From Planctomycetota bacterium (lineage in GTDB: Bacteria; Planctomycetota; Planctomycetia; Planctomycetales; Planctomycetaceae), in the NCBI GenBank assembly GCA_019347905.1, contig JAHWKJ010000001.1:1-43237 (forward strand): a DNA stretch of 43,237 bases. The letters are read 5' to 3'. Made by a program: the position numbers and the translations under genes. Each line of letters starts with the position of its first letter. Positions within the stretch are counted from its first letter, which is position 1. Positions 1,784 through 32,170 of the stretch are shown piece after piece. The notes beneath the pieces were generated by a model that worked only from the letters and a program-made list of their open reading frames with translations, did not search any database and had not been told where the DNA came from.

Positions 1784-1996
1784 TGTGCCGGGCAAAGCGG
1801 CCCCGCTTGATATTCGGCGTCAGCTTGATACCGTTGGGAAGATTTGCGCCCGCGGTCTGGACGTTGCGAACCTTCCCGGTCTTTCGCACCGTTTCCTCTG
1901 CCGCGGGCGCTGCGGCCGTGCCCCGCGACCAGCTTCCGTACCCGCCGGCTCACGCCGGTCGGCTCGACTTGTCCTCTGTCTCCCGGTCCGCCTGCC

Positions 1997-5599
<3,603 letters not shown>

Positions 5600-9423: not shown

Positions 9424-9468
9424 TGTGCCAGTCCGCGCGCCGCACCGCCATTGTTCGCGGGCCGCGAC

Positions 9469-9534
9469 GTTTAGCCGCGTCCCAACGGGACGCGCGGGTG
9501 CAGTGCCACGCGTCCCGTTGGGACGCGGCTAAAC
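9469..9534. repeat. Perfect 26-nt inverted repeat with GTTTAGCCGCG...CGCGGCTAAAC termini (family B, copy 1)
   Basis: gtttagccgcgtcccaacgggacgcg (9469-9494), 14-nt loop, cgcgtcccgttgggacgcggctaaac (9509-9534). Each arm holds a nested mini-hairpin GCGTCCC-aac-GGGACGC. Lies in a divergent intergenic region. Confidence 0.9.
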
Positions 9535-9650
9535 GCAAGCGCGCCGCGGTGAAACGCCGTTTGGTCGCGGCCGCATGGGGTTTCGAGGTACGATAGGACC
9601 TCATTGATGGGTCAAAACTTTTTCAATCGATTTACGAGGGACGTACCGCG

Positions 9651-19040: not shown

Positions 19041-21238
19041 GGCTGAATCTCCGATTGACGATCATTGCCGACGGTCCGGGAGCCATTGCCTTCGGCCTTG
19101 GTCAAGAGCTCCGGCAGTTCGAATTCACGCCGTACCCGATTGGCCTCGTCGAGCGTGATGTGGTAGATGAAGATCGAATAGCCGGCTCGGGCGACCGGCT
19201 CGAACTCCAGGAAGTAGCCGTAATCGGAGCGAGAGACGCCGACGCGTCGGCCCTGCCCGTCGGGGATGGGCCAGCCGTGTCCATGGATGGTATTGATACT
19301 GGCCGCATGCCACCCGGGATGGGGGCCGGCTGGCGGTTGGGGAGCGAGTAGCGAGGGGCGGGAATCGTGGGTCCCGCTCGATCCGTCGTCCGGTCGGGGC
19401 ATCCGCGGCGGGAGTGCGTGTTCGATTCCGGCCCACTTGGGATCGACGGGACCGTAATAGGCCAGATGAAGAGGTCTGGCTTCAGGATGCTCGTCGAGCC
19501 AATCCTTCAGGAACAGGAGGTCCTGCCCCCAGTCGATGTTCGTGTGGATGAGGTGCTCGTGCCCCCGCGCCGGTCCGCCGACGAGCTCGTTGAAGTACGA
19601 CAGGCTGTGCGGGTAGAACCATAGGCTGCTGGCGATCGACCACGCCAAGGCGCCGACGGCGAGTGCATGAAACGCTCGACGCCAGGCGCGGGGCGGCTGG
19701 CGTGCCGGGCCGGCACGTCCCGGCTCTTTTGTCTGGCTCTCAACCCTCGACTCTCGACCCTCGACCCGCTGGAAAACGCGGCTGATCCAGATGAAGGCGA
19801 ACGGCAGGCAGGGCAACACGTAGCGCAGATTCTTATTGAATCCCGTCTGTGAGCTGACGAGCGCGAGGACCGCGACCGCTGGCGCGAGAAGCACCAGTTC
19901 GTCGCGCCGGGATGATCGCGAACGGCCTCCACCGGGCTGGGCGTTCGGCGTTCGGCGTTCGATGCTCGATGTTCGATGTTCGCCGTCCTCCGTGCCTTCC
20001 GCCTCATCCTCCATCTTCAATCCTCTATCCTCACCCGCGGACCTCGCACCGCCCCGGATACGCCCCGACAGCCTCCACCCCAATGCCAGCGCGAATAAGA
20101 GCCAAGTCCCCAGTGGGATCTTGATTGCCAATCCGTACAGATAGTAATACCACCAGCCGCCGAGCTTCCACTCGCCGCGCAGGTAGGATGGCAGCTTACG
20201 CTCGAAGTACTTCCGCTGCGTGTCGATGCCCCGGACGTAGTTTTCCGGGAAAGGGAGGGGTACCCCACTCAGCCAGGTTCCGCGAAAGCGGTTGCCGCTG
20301 TGCCGGCCTTCGCCGATTGTGCCGGCAAGAGATGGGCTGACGAACTCGTATTCCCCGAGCCGTTTGAACGATCCTTCGAAGCCGTAGCCGAGATTGAGGA
20401 CATACAGGGCAACGCCCAGCGTCGCCGCAAGCTGAGCGGCCTCGCCACGCACTCCCCCGCGCGCACCGCGGTCGGCTGTCCAGCGCCAGAGCAGCCATAC
20501 GAGCGGCCACAGGCCGAACAGAACCAGGAAGGTGGCCTTGGTCAACTGCACGAGGCCCAGGGCCAGTCCGGCAAGTGCGGCCGCGCGCCAGCCGGCGAAT
20601 CGCAGCCAGCGCCACAACGCATATGCGGCCAAGACGCACAGCGCCGCCCCGGCCGCATCGGTCGTCATCAGCGAACCGTGCGCAAGGATGTTCGGCGAGA
20701 AGCACCACAAAGCCAAGGCCATGAGTCCCGGCGCGGGTCCATACAGTTCTCGTGCCCATCGGAAGCAGAGGTACCCGCCCACCAGACTGAACGGGATGCA
20801 GGCCCAGCGTGCCAGCGTGATCAGCCAGAAGATCCGCGGCGCGTTGGCCTCAATGAAGTGCTGACTGACTGCAGCCTCCGCGCGGGAGCCTGGCGAGTCG
20901 CGGTAGGCTCGCCAGTCGGTTTCCGGCTGAGCGAGCAGGACCGGCACTGCGGCTGTCAAGCGCACGATCGGCGCGGTGACACGATATAGCTCAAAGCGTC
21001 CCAATTGCCAGTGGCTGATGCCGGCGACGAGTTGAGCCGGTTCGTCGGTATTCGGCGAATGCACAGCGGCGCTCCAGGCAAGGAGGGCGGCGTGGATCAG
21101 CAAGAGTGCGGCGAGGGCGAATGGGAGGAGCAAAGTAGACGAGTCGCTCCGCGACCCGAGGTCCGGTCGCGGAGCGACCGCGCTACTTTGCTGCGCCGGC
21201 GAGGCGTCGTCAGAAGTCCCTGATGACTTGTCCGTCAC
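19037..21238 (-). CDS. GT-C fold glycosyltransferase (GT39/PMT_2/ArnT-like) with repeat-derived in-frame inserts
   Basis: Track ORF 19037-21643. The N-terminal 135 codons overlap the DUF1559 gene and are Arg/Ser/Pro junk. Plausible starts are GTG 21238 or TTG 21133. First loop carries HSPNTDEPAQLVAGISHW (a GT-C DE-type motif after TM1). Many TM helices. Conserved tail YFNELVGGPARGHEHLIHTNIDWGQDL. Confidence 0.8.
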   Translation of the reverse strand: MTDKSSGTSDDASPAQQSSAVAPRPDLGSRSDSSTLLLPFALAALLLIHAALLAWSAAVHSPNTDEPAQLVAGISHWQLGRFELYRVTAPIVRLTAAVPVLLAQPETDWRAYRDSPGSRAEAAVSQHFIEANAPRIFWLITLARWACIPFSLVGGYLCFRWARELYGPAPGLMALALWCFSPNILAHGSLMTTDAAGAALCVLAAYALWRWLRFAGWRAAALAGLALGLVQLTKATFLVLFGLWPLVWLLWRWTADRGARGGVRGEAAQLAATLGVALYVLNLGYGFEGSFKRLGEYEFVSPSLAGTIGEGRHSGNRFRGTWLSGVPLPFPENYVRGIDTQRKYFERKLPSYLRGEWKLGGWWYYYLYGLAIKIPLGTWLLFALALGWRLSGRIRGGARSAGEDRGLKMEDEAEGTEDGEHRTSSIERRTPNAQPGGGRSRSSRRDELVLLAPAVAVLALVSSQTGFNKNLRYVLPCLPFAFIWISRVFQRVEGRESRVESQTKEPGRAGPARQPPRAWRRAFHALAVGALAWSIASSLWFYPHSLSYFNELVGGPARGHEHLIHTNIDWGQDLLFLKDWLDEHPEARPLHLAYYGPVDPKWAGIEHALPPRMPRPDDGSSGTHDSRPSLLAPQPPAGPHPGWHAASINTIHGHGWPIPDGQGRRVGVSRSDYGYFLEFEPVARAGYSIFIYHITLDEANRVRREFELPELLTKAEGNGSRTVGNDRQSEIQP
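19735..19767. repeat. CTCGACY heptamer tandem repeat (family D, copy 1) inside the GT-C gene
   Basis: ggctctcaaccctcgactctcgaccctcgaccc. Translated on the minus strand as VEGRESRVESQ. A related copy lies at 28815-28845. Confidence 0.75.
19941..20034. repeat. Composite simple-sequence insert inside the GT-C gene: six heptamers (GCGTTCG x3, ATGCTCG, ATGTTCG x2) plus a solo degenerate CTCCATCC-type half arm
   Basis: Heptamers at 19941-19982. cctcatcctccatcttcaatcctctatcctcac at 20002-20034, with no opposing GGATGGAG arm found nearby. Minus-strand translation is GEDRGLKMEDEAEGTEDGEHRTSSIERRTPNAQP. Confidence 0.75.
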
Positions 21239-26875: not shown

Positions 26876-27076
26876 ATGACTTCGACCGCTCCTCTGCTCG
26901 ACCGCGGCATGTCGAACGATGTCGAGCCGGCGCCGCGCAAACCGGCCGAGCAGCCGGTGCGGCTGACGCCGCGCGGCCGCGAAGTGTTGGAGACGCTGAA
27001 TGACTTGTTCGACGCCCAGCAGCCGCTGCCGACCGAAGTGGACAGGTTTGAGAAGGAGTCTGCCAGCCATGGTTGA
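26876..27076 (+). CDS. Hypothetical 66-aa protein, translationally coupled to the response regulator
   Basis: Track ORF. High GC3 codon pattern. Its stop overlaps the receiver gene start (ATGGTTGA, 27069-27076). No family recognised. Confidence 0.4.
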   Translation: MTSTAPLLDRGMSNDVEPAPRKPAEQPVRLTPRGREVLETLNDLFDAQQPLPTEVDRFEKESASHG

Positions 27077-27596
27077 TGCTTCGCCCGGCGCCGCGGCGGC
27101 CGAACGTCCCCGCGTGCTGGTCATTGATGACGAGCCGCTGTTTCGCAGCCTGATCTCGGGACTGCTCAAGAACGACTTTGAAGTCGAGACGGCGGCCGAC
27201 GGGGCCGAAGGCTACTTCCGGGCGCTGAAGAGTCGGCCGCACGTCGCGATCATCGACATTCAGATGCCGGGCTGGGACGGCCTGACGACGCTGCACGCGT
27301 TCCATACCCATCCGGCGCTGCGCGACGTCCGCACCATCGTGCTTTCCAGCGACGCGACGCGGCCGACCGTCGTGGCCGCGATTCGCGCCGGGGCCAACGA
27401 ATACCTGATCAAGACCGGCTTCTCGCGCGAGGAACTCTTGCGGAAGCTGAGGAACCTGCTGCGGACACAGGCCGCGTCACAGCAGCCGCCGTCGCAACTG
27501 AGCGAGGCCGACGGCTCAGTCGCCTCGCCGCATGACAATGCGGCCGACGCAGCAAGCATACCCCCGGTTCAGCACGTGCTGGATGAGTGGGACTGA
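27069..27596 (+). CDS. Single-domain CheY-like response regulator receiver with a low-complexity tail
   Basis: Internal ATG of track ORF 27000-27596. RVLVIDDEPLFR, VAIIDIQMPGWDGL (phospho-acceptor Asp context), IVLSSDA, EYLIKTGF. Confidence 0.85.
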   Translation: MVDASPGAAAAERPRVLVIDDEPLFRSLISGLLKNDFEVETAADGAEGYFRALKSRPHVAIIDIQMPGWDGLTTLHAFHTHPALRDVRTIVLSSDATRPTVVAAIRAGANEYLIKTGFSREELLRKLRNLLRTQAASQQPPSQLSEADGSVASPHDNAADAASIPPVQHVLDEWD

Positions 27597-27608
27597 GCGG
27601 TGGAGGCA

Positions 27609-27685
27609 GAGAGGATGGAGGATGGAAGATAGAGGATGGCCGGCTGTGGTTCTGCGCCATCCTCCATTCTCTATCCTCCATCCTC
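27609..27685. terminator. (GGATGGAG)n hairpin copy A4 between convergent genes; possible bidirectional terminator-like structure that also supplies the nadC stop codon
   Basis: Left arm gagaggatggaggatggaagatagaggatgg (27609-27639). Right arm ccatcctccattctctatcctccatcctc (27657-27685). Begins 13 nt after the receiver stop. No U-tract, so a terminator role is inferred only. Confidence 0.45.
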
Positions 27686-28663
27686 ACTCGCCGACTCCCC
27701 GCGCCAGTCAAACGCCAGGTCGAGTGCGGGCGCGGAATGAGTGAGCGCACCCACGCTGATCCGCTCCACGCCGCATTCGGCGATATCCCGCACCGTTTCC
27801 AGCGTCACGCCGCCGGAAGCCTCCAGCAGGACGTGCGGGGCCTGGGCGTCGCGAAGCCGCGCCGCTTCGCGCAGCATGTCCGGCGGCATGTTGTCCAGGA
27901 GGACGATGTCCGGTTCGCCCTCCAGCGCGTCCCGAAGCTGCGCGAGCGAATCCACCTCGACTTCGACCGTCATGCCAACGGGGTCAGACCCCTTTGCGGG
28001 CGTGCGACGTAAACCTTGGGACAACCGCTCCTCCGCAAAGGGGTCTGACCCCTTCGCCAACGCGTCGCGCGCGCGGCGGACGGCCGCGGCAATGCTACGC
28101 TGCGCGTCGCCCTCCGCCCACGCCGACAGGTGGTTGTCTTTGATCAGGCAGCCGTCGAACAGCCCCAGGCGGTGATTGCATCCGCCGCCGCAGCGCACGG
28201 CGTACTTGGCCAGCGCCCGCCCACCCGGCAGCGTCTTGCGCGTATCGAGGATCGTGGCACTGGTGCCGTCAACGGCGTCGACAAACGCCCGGGTCAGTGT
28301 GGCGATGCCGCTGAGGTGCGTGAGAAAGTTGAGCGCCGTCCGCTCGCCCGCCAGCAGCGAGCGCAACGGCCCCGCCACCGACGCCACCACGTCGCCCGGC
28401 TTGAGTGTCGAGCCGTCAGGAAGCTTCGGCCGCCATTCGACGTGGGGATCGAGCCGTTCGAACACGAGTTCAGCGACCGGCCCGCCCGAGAGCACCCCTC
28501 GCGCACGCGCCACCACCAGTATCTCCGCGCGGCGGCCGGGTTCGATCAGCGCCTGCGACGTCAGATCGCCCGCTGCGCCGAGATCTTCCGCCAACGCCAG
28601 CTCGATCAGCCGCGCGGCCGATTCACGCTCCCACTCGCCGAAAGTCTCGGCCATATCACCCAT
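27671..28663 (-). CDS. nadC: Nicotinate-nucleotide pyrophosphorylase (carboxylating) with an in-frame palindromic insertion
   Basis: Track ORF. Motifs GERTALNFLTHLSGIAT, ILDTRKTLPGGRALAKYAVRCGGGCNHR, LIKDNH, VEVEVDSLAQL, LLDNM and SGGVTLETV are typical of QPRTase. Confidence 0.9.
   Translation of the reverse strand: MGDMAETFGEWERESAARLIELALAEDLGAAGDLTSQALIEPGRRAEILVVARARGVLSGGPVAELVFERLDPHVEWRPKLPDGSTLKPGDVVASVAGPLRSLLAGERTALNFLTHLSGIATLTRAFVDAVDGTSATILDTRKTLPGGRALAKYAVRCGGGCNHRLGLFDGCLIKDNHLSAWAEGDAQRSIAAAVRRARDALAKGSDPFAEERLSQGLRRTPAKGSDPVGMTVEVEVDSLAQLRDALEGEPDIVLLDNMPPDMLREAARLRDAQAPHVLLEASGGVTLETVRDIAECGVERISVGALTHSAPALDLAFDWRGESASEDGG
27980..28052. repeat. Perfect 20-nt inverted repeat GGGGTCAGACCCCTTTGCGG / CCGCAAAGGGGTCTGACCCC (family C) inside nadC
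   Basis: Arms at 27980-27999 and 28033-28052 with a 33-nt loop. Each arm has a nested GGGGTC-a-GACCCC mini-palindrome. Translated on the minus strand as AKGSDPFAEERLSQGLRRTPAKGSDPV. Confidence 0.9.
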
Positions 28664-28696
28664 GAGTCGCCATTTTCGTCATTCAGACTTCGAGAC

Positions 28697-28773
28697 GTTT
28701 AGCCGCGACTCGCCAGAGGAGCGCTTCGGGACGACTCGCTCCAGAGCGCTCCTCTGGCGAGTCGCGGCTAAAC
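28697..28773. repeat. Perfect 29-nt inverted repeat with GTTTAGCCGCG...CGCGGCTAAAC termini (family B, copy 2)
   Basis: gtttagccgcgactcgccagaggagcgct (28697-28725), 19-nt loop, agcgctcctctggcgagtcgcggctaaac (28745-28773). Lies in the divergent nadC/ald intergenic region. Confidence 0.9.
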
Positions 28774-28814
28774 GGCATAGATTGTCGAAAACGGCTCCGG
28801 GCGCTGGCGCCTCC

Positions 28815-31064: not shown

Positions 31065-32015
31065 TTACCACAAACCGGCCCGGGGATTCTCGGGCGAGCG
31101 GGCCGCAAGCTCCCGGTACAGACGCTGCGTCTCGTCGTCCGCCTGGGCCGGCACCACAATCTTGATAACGACGAATTGATCCCCCCGCTGGCCTGTCTTC
31201 GCATCGGTCACGCCCTTGCCGCGCAGCCGCAGCTTGCGGCCGCTGGAGGAGGCGGGCGGGACCGTGACTGTCACGTTGCCTTCGCCCAGCGTCGGCGCCT
31301 CGACCTTCGCGCCCAGCACCGCTTCGGACGGCGTAATCGGCACGTCGACGTACAGGTCGCTGCCCTCGCGGCGGAACCACGGGTGCGGCGCGACACGGAT
31401 GGTGAGCAGGAGATCGCCCGCCGGTCCCCCGCCCGGCCCCGGCTGCCCCTGGCCCGCGAGGCGGATCGTCTTGCCGTCGTCGATGCCTGCCGGAATCTTG
31501 ACGTTGATGCGTTCGGTGCGGCCCTCGCGCTCCAGGGCCAGCGAGTGGTTCCCGCCTTCGGCGGCGGTCTGAAAGGGCACTTGGATGTCGAGCGCGACGT
31601 CCTGCCCCCGCATCGGCCGCGGCCCGCCGCGTCCGCCCCCGAAACCGGCCTGCCCGCCCATCCCGCCGAACATGCCGCCGAGGATGTCGTTGAGGTCGAA
31701 CTCGGCCGACGTTCCGCCGGGCGCGCCGCGGGTCGACCACTTGGTCTTCCACTGGAACGGCCCCTGCCCCCATTGACCGCCACCCTTGAAGGCGGCCCCG
31801 TAGCGGTCGAATTGCTCGCGCTTCTCGGGATCGCTCAGGATCTCGTAGGCTTCCTGGATCTTCTTGAACCGCTCGGCCGCCGCGGTATCGCCAGGGTTCT
31901 TATCCGGGTGATACTGGCGCGACAGCTTGCGGTGGGCCTTGCGAATCTCATCGCTGGAGGCCCCGCGCGAAACGCCCAGGATCTTGTAGTAGTCGTCGTC
32001 GGCAGCGGCAGGCAT
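31065..32015 (-). CDS. DnaJ-class J-domain co-chaperone lacking the zinc-finger domain (CbpA-like)
   Basis: Track ORF. DYYKILGVSRGASSDEIRKAHRKLSRQYHPDKNPGD (HPD motif), a Gly/Phe-rich linker and DnaJ C-terminal beta domains. No CXXCXGXG repeats. Confidence 0.85.
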   Translation of the reverse strand: MPAAADDDYYKILGVSRGASSDEIRKAHRKLSRQYHPDKNPGDTAAAERFKKIQEAYEILSDPEKREQFDRYGAAFKGGGQWGQGPFQWKTKWSTRGAPGGTSAEFDLNDILGGMFGGMGGQAGFGGGRGGPRPMRGQDVALDIQVPFQTAAEGGNHSLALEREGRTERINVKIPAGIDDGKTIRLAGQGQPGPGGGPAGDLLLTIRVAPHPWFRREGSDLYVDVPITPSEAVLGAKVEAPTLGEGNVTVTVPPASSSGRKLRLRGKGVTDAKTGQRGDQFVVIKIVVPAQADDETQRLYRELAARSPENPRAGLW

Positions 32016-32093
32016 GGCGCACGAGAGGATGGGCGAGGGAAGCGCGGGAATGATACGAATTGCCCGCGGTGCGGAAAAGACCGGCGGTGGAGG

Positions 32094-32170
32094 GAGGAGG
32101 ATGGAGGATAGAGGATGGAGGATGGAGGATGGCGCCGAGGGGAATCCGCCATCTTCTATCCTCCACCCTC
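32094..32170. terminator. (GGATGGAG)n hairpin copy A5 between co-directional genes (terminator-like)
   Basis: Left arm gaggaggatggaggatagaggatggaggatggaggatgg (32094-32132). Right arm ccatcttctatcctccaccctc (32149-32170). On the minus strand it lies 16 nt downstream of the 32186 stop and 79 nt upstream of the J-protein start. Confidence 0.45.

Follow-up and report, generated by a model that had tools for sequence, protein, structure and literature searches.

The window analysed here is a stretch of 43,237 nucleotides from a Planctomycetota bacterium (NCBI GenBank assembly GCA_019347905.1, contig JAHWKJ010000001.1, positions 1 to 43,237), in which the quinolinate phosphoribosyltransferase gene, nadC, carries a 25-codon insert built around a perfect inverted repeat. 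We consider it likely that this insert is a REPIN-like doublet of the GGGGWSAS type, that is, an inverted pair resembling those of repetitive extragenic palindromic (REP) sequences, probably moved by a tyrosine (Y1) transposase and tolerated in frame. According to this explanation, a Y1 transposase of the HUH type, acting on single-stranded hairpin DNA, would have copied the doublet into nadC, where the copy would have fallen in the permissive loop between a helix and the VEVEVD strand and happened to preserve the frame; NadC would have gained a loop of 25 residues and stayed functional under selection.

A sequence-only reading of this DNA had described a perfect 20-bp inverted repeat, its arms 33 nt apart, translated in frame within nadC, and the repeat is found exactly where it had been placed. 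The features of the nadC region, in window positions, are the following:

27671-28663, minus strand: intact nadC of 330 codons, which encodes quinolinate phosphoribosyltransferase and houses the insert (Pfam, PDB, invariant residues and AlphaFold2 model)
27980-28054, minus strand: inserted DNA, 75 nt or 25 codons, K204-P228, KGSDPFAEERLSQGLRRTPAKGSDP, with edges ambiguous by 1-3 nt
27980-27999, plus strand: left arm of the doublet, GGGGTCAGACCCCTTTGCGG, beginning with the GGGGWSAS motif, core palindrome at 27980-27992
28000-28032, no strand: spacer of 33 nt, which forms the hairpin loop and resembles none of the spacers in 118 other doublets (normalised alignment score 0.07 at best)
28033-28052, minus strand: right arm, reverse-complementary to the left one at every position, core palindrome at 28040-28052, which reads GGGGTCTGACCCC on the plus strand
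27973-28059, no strand: extended imperfect inverted repeat, with 34-nt arms that are 82% complementary

The arms match at 20 of 20 positions and, together with the spacer, span 73 bp; from dinucleotide-preserving shuffles of the window one expects 0.09 matches to the 13-mer core and 0 to the 20-mer. The mini-palindrome GGGGTC-a-GACCCC, also pointed out in the earlier reading, is present in each arm, nested there as GGGGTC-W-GACCCC (W, A or T), and makes up a 13-nt core, GGGGTCWGACCCC, of which the window contains two, one per arm. Owing to the palindromic nature of the core, the arms also match each other in direct orientation (86%, at a distance of 60 nt), and two direct copies of AAGGGGTCWGACCCC stand at this distance in the insert. 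The predicted RNA fold of the surrounding 116 nt is one long hairpin, with -65.3 kcal/mol and a z of -5.3 against shuffles. The hexamer GCCAAC, which the extended imperfect repeat takes in, flanks the doublet at 27974-27979 and 28056-28061, a pair that is probably coincidental; its interpretation as a target-site duplication was rejected, since it implies a frame-breaking insert of 82 nt and no duplications were found in 118 related doublets. The flanks of the window copy, CCAAC and TTCGC, differ, so that the target-site duplication typical of a miniature inverted-repeat transposable element (MITE) of the DDE type is missing. Moreover, a plasmid BLAST search and a scan of viral contigs gave only short matches at chance level, and a plasmid or phage vector is unsupported.

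The earlier reading had placed the insert between AAVRRARDAL and the conserved VEVEVDSLAQL strand, where other NadC proteins were said to have only a few residues, and multiple alignment bears this out. When 8000 NadC homologs were scored and the 120 best (the window protein and 119 others) aligned, residues 204-227 fell in columns that are empty in 119/119 of the closest homologs, which carry six residues where the window NadC carries 31; conservation of the insert at the protein level across taxa, named earlier as contrary evidence, was looked for and found in no relative. The closest homologs, from Planctomycetota assemblies, are 60-66% identical and about 30 residues shorter. Excision of 25 codons (AAG...CCC, 27980-28054) yields ARDALA|VGMTVEVEVD, which restores the family length. 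Across the repeat, the translation of nadC reads ...ARDALAKGSDPFAEERLSQGLRRTPAKGSDPVGMTVEVEVD..., and the tryptic peptides predicted from the insert region are GSDPFAEER, LSQGLR and GSDPVGMTVEVEVDSLAQLR.

The possibility of a pseudogene had also been raised, and nadC is not one: its open reading frame (ORF) is intact, the product contains both Pfam domains (QRPTase_N, E 1.5e-19, and QRPTase_C, E 5.4e-53), 60/60 invariant family residues are retained in the alignment of the 120 best, the GC content at third codon positions (GC3) is of the coding type (0.81) and the structural model is confident. The best PDB match is 1x1o (E=1e-67), and the solved NadC structures all align as two blocks, skipping roughly residues 192-228. 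The AlphaFold2 model, built on the same 120-sequence alignment, has a mean predicted local distance difference test score (pLDDT) of 87.6 and a predicted template-modelling score (pTM) of 0.85, with target-normalised TM values of 0.84-0.93 against solved quinolinate phosphoribosyltransferases (QPRTases); in the insert, which links helix 191-203 to strand 233-237, pLDDT falls to about 44-68. According to this model, the QPRTase fold is probably kept and the insert is probably a disordered surface loop. In alpha/beta barrels the N-terminal ends of the strands form the face opposite the catalytic face; the insert, placed at the N-terminal end of the VEVEVD strand (an alpha-to-beta connection), would lie on that opposite face. 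Judged from the sequence, the insert is presumably translated and NadC presumably retains its activity.

The reading frame continued through the insert because this is 75 nt long and open in 4/6 frames, the frame reading GTC-TGA being closed on each strand. The GC3 of the insert is 0.68 versus 0.83 in the remaining gene (p = 0.10), and the rare codons TTA, CAA, TCA and TCT are present in it. Together with the perfect arms, the lower GC3 and the rare codons weakly suggest that the insertion is recent.

Doublets with the same core in other genomes

The evidence on the core across phyla comes from exact-core scans and refers to the matches listed. A scan with the 20-mer, using one genome per species, gave at least 29 loci, 18 of the listed ones being in Faecalicatena or Muricomes (Firmicutes) and the others in Solirubrobacteraceae, other Actinomycetota, Acidobacteriota, Hyphomicrobiaceae, Duganella and Ferrovum; at nearly all of them further cores are found within 8 kb. 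The organism of the window is not among the matches listed. Three doublets were seen at the Hyphomicrobiaceae locus (L011); their arms are conserved, their spacers, about 27 nt long, are unrelated, and none of the three falls within a Pfam-matched part of a neighbouring gene. The core also occurs in many soil metagenome contigs. As a side observation, in the Faecalicatena/Muricomes (Lachnospiraceae) loci (L001-L027) the 20-mer lies inside a longer conserved unit, GGGGTCWGACCCCTTTGCGGTCCGTTTTCAGAATATTC, which usually begins just behind a stop codon, at a distance of a few bases, and resembles a terminator-associated repeat.

In metagenomes, a relaxed doublet pattern with 15-nt arms was found in at least 120 stretches, giving 119 unique doublets among the matches listed, on contigs with a GC content of 0.39-0.75. 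In these the core is the tip of a hairpin whose stem extensions differ by lineage. Statistics were drawn from the 118 listed doublets with enough flank (L030-L149), in which the stem often continues into the outer flanks and the length ranges from 58 to 87 nt, with a mode of 66-68. No target-site duplications were found in these 118, direct-repeat flanks being at chance level for k = 2-8. The spacers are unrelated (26/6903 pairs similar), and that of the window is similar to none. The arrangement A...T (GGGGTCAGACCCC...GGGGTCTGACCCC), to which the window copy belongs, was counted 91 times versus 13 for T...A, which means that the core, palindromic apart from its central W base, derives from this base a polarity to which the system adheres. 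Doublets are clustered at three loci (L029, L022 and L037).

The sequence-only reading had taken in-frame coding insertion to be general in this genome. Within the window this stood for a second, heptamer-based family (twice in carB and at the nadC stop codon, see below), the GGGGTC family having only one copy there; elsewhere, coding insertion of GGGGTC doublets turned out to be the exception. Only 4/90 of the listed doublets with at least 300 nt of flank on both sides lie in coding-like ORFs, about 96% being extragenic. Of these four, L078 encodes an ABC-transporter ATPase and L071 a membrane protein into which KGSDP...KGSDP is inserted; the third product is of low complexity, and the fourth ORF is probably non-coding. 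The ATPase gene (L078:847-1563, minus strand, metagenome contig Ga0070699_100000554) contains three cores in frame, ...RNGVRPLASEDGVRPLARSASAKVAPTEARGLTPSSELD..., and its product has the Walker A motif GPNGAGKST and the signature LSYGHQ. Furthermore, in an Acidobacteriota metagenome-assembled genome (CAWAEG010000001.1, L022:3895-7746, plus strand), the gene for cobalamin-dependent methionine synthase (MetH) contains GGGGTCAGACCC(C) cores at 4987, 5002 and 5075, read in frame as GVRP..GVRP..GQTPLR in the linker that joins the homocysteine domain to the pterin domain; compared with the solved MetH 9ssp, this linker is longer by about 19 residues. The great majority of GGGGTC doublets are thus extragenic, with coding copies in frame as a recurrent but infrequent result.

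Y1 transposases and competing explanations

A Pfam run on the 150 coding-like ORFs nearest to cores gave Y1_Tnp in three, and a phmmer search of all ORFs in 149 element-selected loci (924 kb) gave five Y1_Tnp ORFs. The distance to a core is 0-254 nt for each of the five, and the gene at L021 is enclosed by cores, much like a REPtron. Their hosts are Actinomycetota, Firmicutes and three unclassified metagenome contigs. These genes, related to those of REP-associated tyrosine transposases (RAYTs), are:

L021:1949-2767, plus strand: RAYT-like Y1 (HUH) gene
L001:5193-5966, minus strand: RAYT-like Y1 (HUH) gene
L052:506-1237, minus strand: RAYT-like Y1 (HUH) gene
L139:508-1704, minus strand: RAYT-like Y1 (HUH) gene
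L103:152-898, plus strand: RAYT-like Y1 (HUH) gene

The best match of 5/5 ORFs is the NCBIfam model NF047646 (REP-associated tyrosine transposase), with 63.6-84.7 bits, the IS200 model being far weaker. The L021 protein has E. coli TnpA-REP (4er8) as its closest solved structure and a weak C-terminal match to HTH_23. The signatures of subclass 2.1 are NHVH or NH[YF]H, YIELNP or Y[IV]HLNP, an SS tail, a length of about 238 aa and a C-terminal helix-turn-helix (PMC6006769); L052 has the exact motifs (NHVH, YIELNP, SS), L139 near-exact ones (NHLH, YIHLNP, SS) and L001 partial ones (FQ, SS, YIHNNP). RAYT-like genes average well below one per genome (PMC6006769 Table 1); five Y1 genes in less than 1 Mb of repeat-selected DNA would represent a strong enrichment. 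Mobilisation of the doublet by a Y1 transposase is probable, and enzymes of subclass 2.1 may be the ones that move such repeats.

Several observations weigh against this reading. In the 43-kb window the phmmer search found no Y1 ORF, and there is no further copy of the core beyond the doublet, so that membership of a transposase-served, multi-copy family can only be presumed for this genome. Only 2/5 of the RAYT-like proteins pass the NF047646 cutoff of 80, two of them (L021 and L103) are divergent from the subclass 2.1 motifs, and subclass 2.1 was scored as 'no REP' by Quentin et al. (2018, PMC6006769). Among 241 million metagenome records no doublets with perfect 18-nt arms of this sequence were found, which means that both the window contig and any sister copy with exact arms are absent from that collection. 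The databases searched gave no relative above about 66% identity for an empty-site comparison, and the scans required the exact core, which partly builds in its apparent invariance.

It is conceivable, although we would put it below an even chance, that the doublets tipped by GGGGTCWGACCCC supply the REPIN-like partner so far missing for Group 1/subclass 2.1, the RAYT clade with the widest distribution. If so, a single repeat-transposase system with a nearly fixed core would extend across Firmicutes, Actinomycetota, Acidobacteriota, Proteobacteria and Planctomycetota; it would be abundant in soil metagenomes and would repeatedly write loops of 20-30 residues into NadC, MetH and ABC ATPases. 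The less documented part of the present case is a 13-nt palindromic core that occurs in doublets of at least five phyla and adjoins RAYT-like Y1 genes. The core fits the GGGGWSAS motif of a clade for which the main survey recognised no dispersed repeat family (PMC6006769), and, if the link holds, it would provide a simple substrate for testing the function of Group 1 RAYTs. A literature search on the 13-mer and the 11-mer returned no relevant paper, and neither the REP catalogue (PMC3733652) nor the HuH survey contains the 13-nt core in its text or supplements.

Among the alternatives to a Y1-moved doublet merely tolerated by nadC, co-option has the best standing, unlikely as we judge it to be. 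The hairpin would regulate nadC (through pausing, mRNA stability or as a replication or recombination hotspot), or the loop would give the enzyme a new interaction, either of which is compatible with a mobile origin. The great stability of the hairpin and the persistence of perfect arms inside a coding sequence are in keeping with such a role, as is the retention of the carB heptamer-hairpin inserts, described below, across lineages of about 78% identity (homolog P0133). However, a recent insertion explains the perfect arms equally well, the insert is conserved in no relative and is predicted to be disordered, and an Rfam scan of 27800-28250 found no known RNA family, the best match being mir-967, a generic hairpin, with 25 bits against a gathering threshold of 70 bits.

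Less probable still is a local origin in nadC, either by duplication or template switching or as an old lineage-specific loop, with palindromy and resemblance incidental. It would agree with the single copy in the window, with the lack of a sister copy having the same spacer among the listed doublets of the metagenome scan and with the lineage-specific inserts that other NadC proteins (e.g. P0031 and P0039) have in a nearby loop. Nevertheless, the exact 20-mer arm is multi-copy in several unrelated phyla, a chance match of 20 nt being negligible; a perfect 20/20 palindrome is needless for protein function and, if old, would have decayed by synonymous drift; and the insert is absent from all 119 homologs and contains rare codons. 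An artefact of assembly, or a chimera in this metagenome-assembled contig, is about equally improbable: the contig is the sole record of this NadC protein and palindromes can trouble assemblers, but exactly 25 stop-free codons in a loop where the structure permits additions, in a gene that is perfect elsewhere, with a unique 33-nt spacer not expected from fold-back, argue against it, as do similar in-frame doublets in independent assemblies of other organisms.

A classical MITE derived from a DDE transposon, such as a miniature of the Tn3 family, whose inverted repeats likewise start GGGGTCTGAC, is the least probable of all and its Tn3 version was rejected: the small size, the terminal inverted repeats starting with GGGG and ending in CCCC and the hexamer on either side are outweighed by the lack of target-site duplications (including the 5-bp one of Tn3) at the window boundaries and in the 118 related doublets, by interiors unrelated between copies, by the broken frame that the hexamer reading implies and by adjoining transposases that are Y1/HUH and not DDE.

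Other palindromic families in the window

In a second, unrelated family the hairpin arms consist of heptamers in tandem, (GAGGATG)3-4...(CATCCTC)3-4, and the repeat unit is stop-free in all six frames. This family is probably the 'octamer element' of the sequence-only reading. Its four sites in the window are:

3720-3801: heptamer hairpin in carB
4669-4783: heptamer hairpin in carB
27608-27688: heptamer hairpin overlapping the end of nadC
32097-32170: heptamer hairpin in a DnaJ-like ORF

The carB gene (1829-5599, plus strand) contains in-frame inserts of about 56 and about 48 residues with respect to E. coli CarB (nt ~3665-3848 and 4679-4829), which coincide with the two hairpins and are missing from 11/12 Planctomycetota relatives. 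The remaining homolog, P0133 (78% identical over the alignment), shares a related insert, RVEDGGNP...PSSI, at the second site, which shows that such inserts can persist through divergence. The hairpin at 27608-27688 lies between a convergent response-regulator gene (27000-27596, plus strand) and nadC, and its right arm supplies the C-terminal residues of NadC (...SEDGG) together with the TAG stop codon of the gene. The hairpin has the look of a terminator-like repeat, bidirectional in kind, that reshaped this C-terminus. The hairpin at 32097-32170 falls in the first ~25 codons of a DnaJ-like stop-to-stop ORF (31065-32168, minus strand) whose J domain begins at residue 59, and it is more likely to be upstream of the true start than to form an N-terminal extension.

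The two palindromes at 9468-9535 and 28696-28774 form a third family, in that they share the ends CGTTTAGCCGCG...CGCGGCTAAACG; their arms, of 30 and 39 nt, are 90-97% complementary. One of the copies is in the divergent nadC-ald intergenic region and the other at the 5' end of a gene with an amidohydrolase/beta-lactamase domain. Further hairpins were observed at 1691-1786 and 21124-21197.

Taken by itself, the nadC case is an ordinary one, in-frame palindromic repeats in permissive loops having already been described in Rickettsia, Opitutus and other bacteria. With it, housekeeping genes of Planctomycetota join the list of hosts, two unrelated hairpin families being presumably translated at three places in 43 kb. 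There is also a trap for annotation, in that the repeat-derived segments of NadC and CarB are not to be taken for functional domains.

Comparison with known systems

The MITEs derived from DDE transposons (Correia elements and the Tn3-derived inverted-repeat miniature elements, TIMEs) share with the window doublet a small size, a non-autonomous nature, terminal inverted repeats and an occasional location in frame within genes, but they have target-site duplications and conserved interiors, and the doublet family shows neither. Closer in behaviour are the Rickettsia palindromic elements (RPEs), which Ogata and co-workers are said to have found in 2000 in frame in conserved protein-coding genes. 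In these, as in intragenic REPs, a palindromic insert adds 20-30 residues in frame at a permissive surface and the gene survives; RPEs, however, are ~100-150 bp long, are restricted to Rickettsia and belong to another phylum and sequence family, so that the likeness is one of behaviour only.

A more detailed resemblance exists with REPINs, or REP dimers (bacterial interspersed mosaic elements, BIMEs; Bertels and Rainey 2011, PMC3116915), which are mobilised by RAYTs and likewise consist of inverted pairs; each pair encloses a short spacer of lower conservation and folds as a single long hairpin. REP dimers have spacers of 20-100 bp, often of different sequence, and the intragenic ones encode 20-30 aa (PMC3733652). 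The lack of target-site duplications, one predominant relative orientation and a mostly extragenic location are shared with the doublet family as a whole. In contrast, REPIN-RAYT systems of the classic type (Groups 2 and 3) belong to gammaproteobacteria, are vertically inherited and are characterised by a 5' GT[AG]G foot, which is absent at the spacer ends of the window copy and was counted 10 and 7 times in the 118 doublets versus 7 and 9 in a wrong-orientation control. A canonical REP of the GTAG superfamily was rejected for want of this foot; canonical REPs are also extragenic, whereas the window copy is inside nadC.

The nearest relatives are the repeats of the terminal inverted repeat-associated tyrosine transposases (TIRYTs), which are flanked by inverted repeats with the motif GGGGWSAS (Di Nocera et al. 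2013, PMC3733652); some of these repeats are moderately abundant, self-complementary families organised as dimers or clusters (PMC3733652). Most TIRYTs fall in subclass 2.1, which is the RAYT Group 1 of Bertels, with the consensus GGGG[AT][CG]A[CG] and an exceptionally broad taxonomic range (PMC6006769); Group 1 covers 21 bacterial classes, being the most widely distributed group, and is flanked by 16-mers of modest copy number (Bertels et al. 2017, PMC5581495). The published TIRYT repeats flank transposase genes, apart from the 'moderately abundant' families in a few genomes, whereas the window copy is a 73-bp doublet, intragenic and in frame, with no transposase nearby. On the other hand, the window arm starts with GGGGTCAG, an exact fit to both forms of the motif (PMC3733652, PMC6006769), and the two groups have in common, besides this motif, self-complementarity, dimers or clusters, a broad taxonomic spread, the absence of a GT[AG]G foot and, in other genomes, RAYT-like Y1 genes with subclass 2.1 motifs that adjoin the same core.

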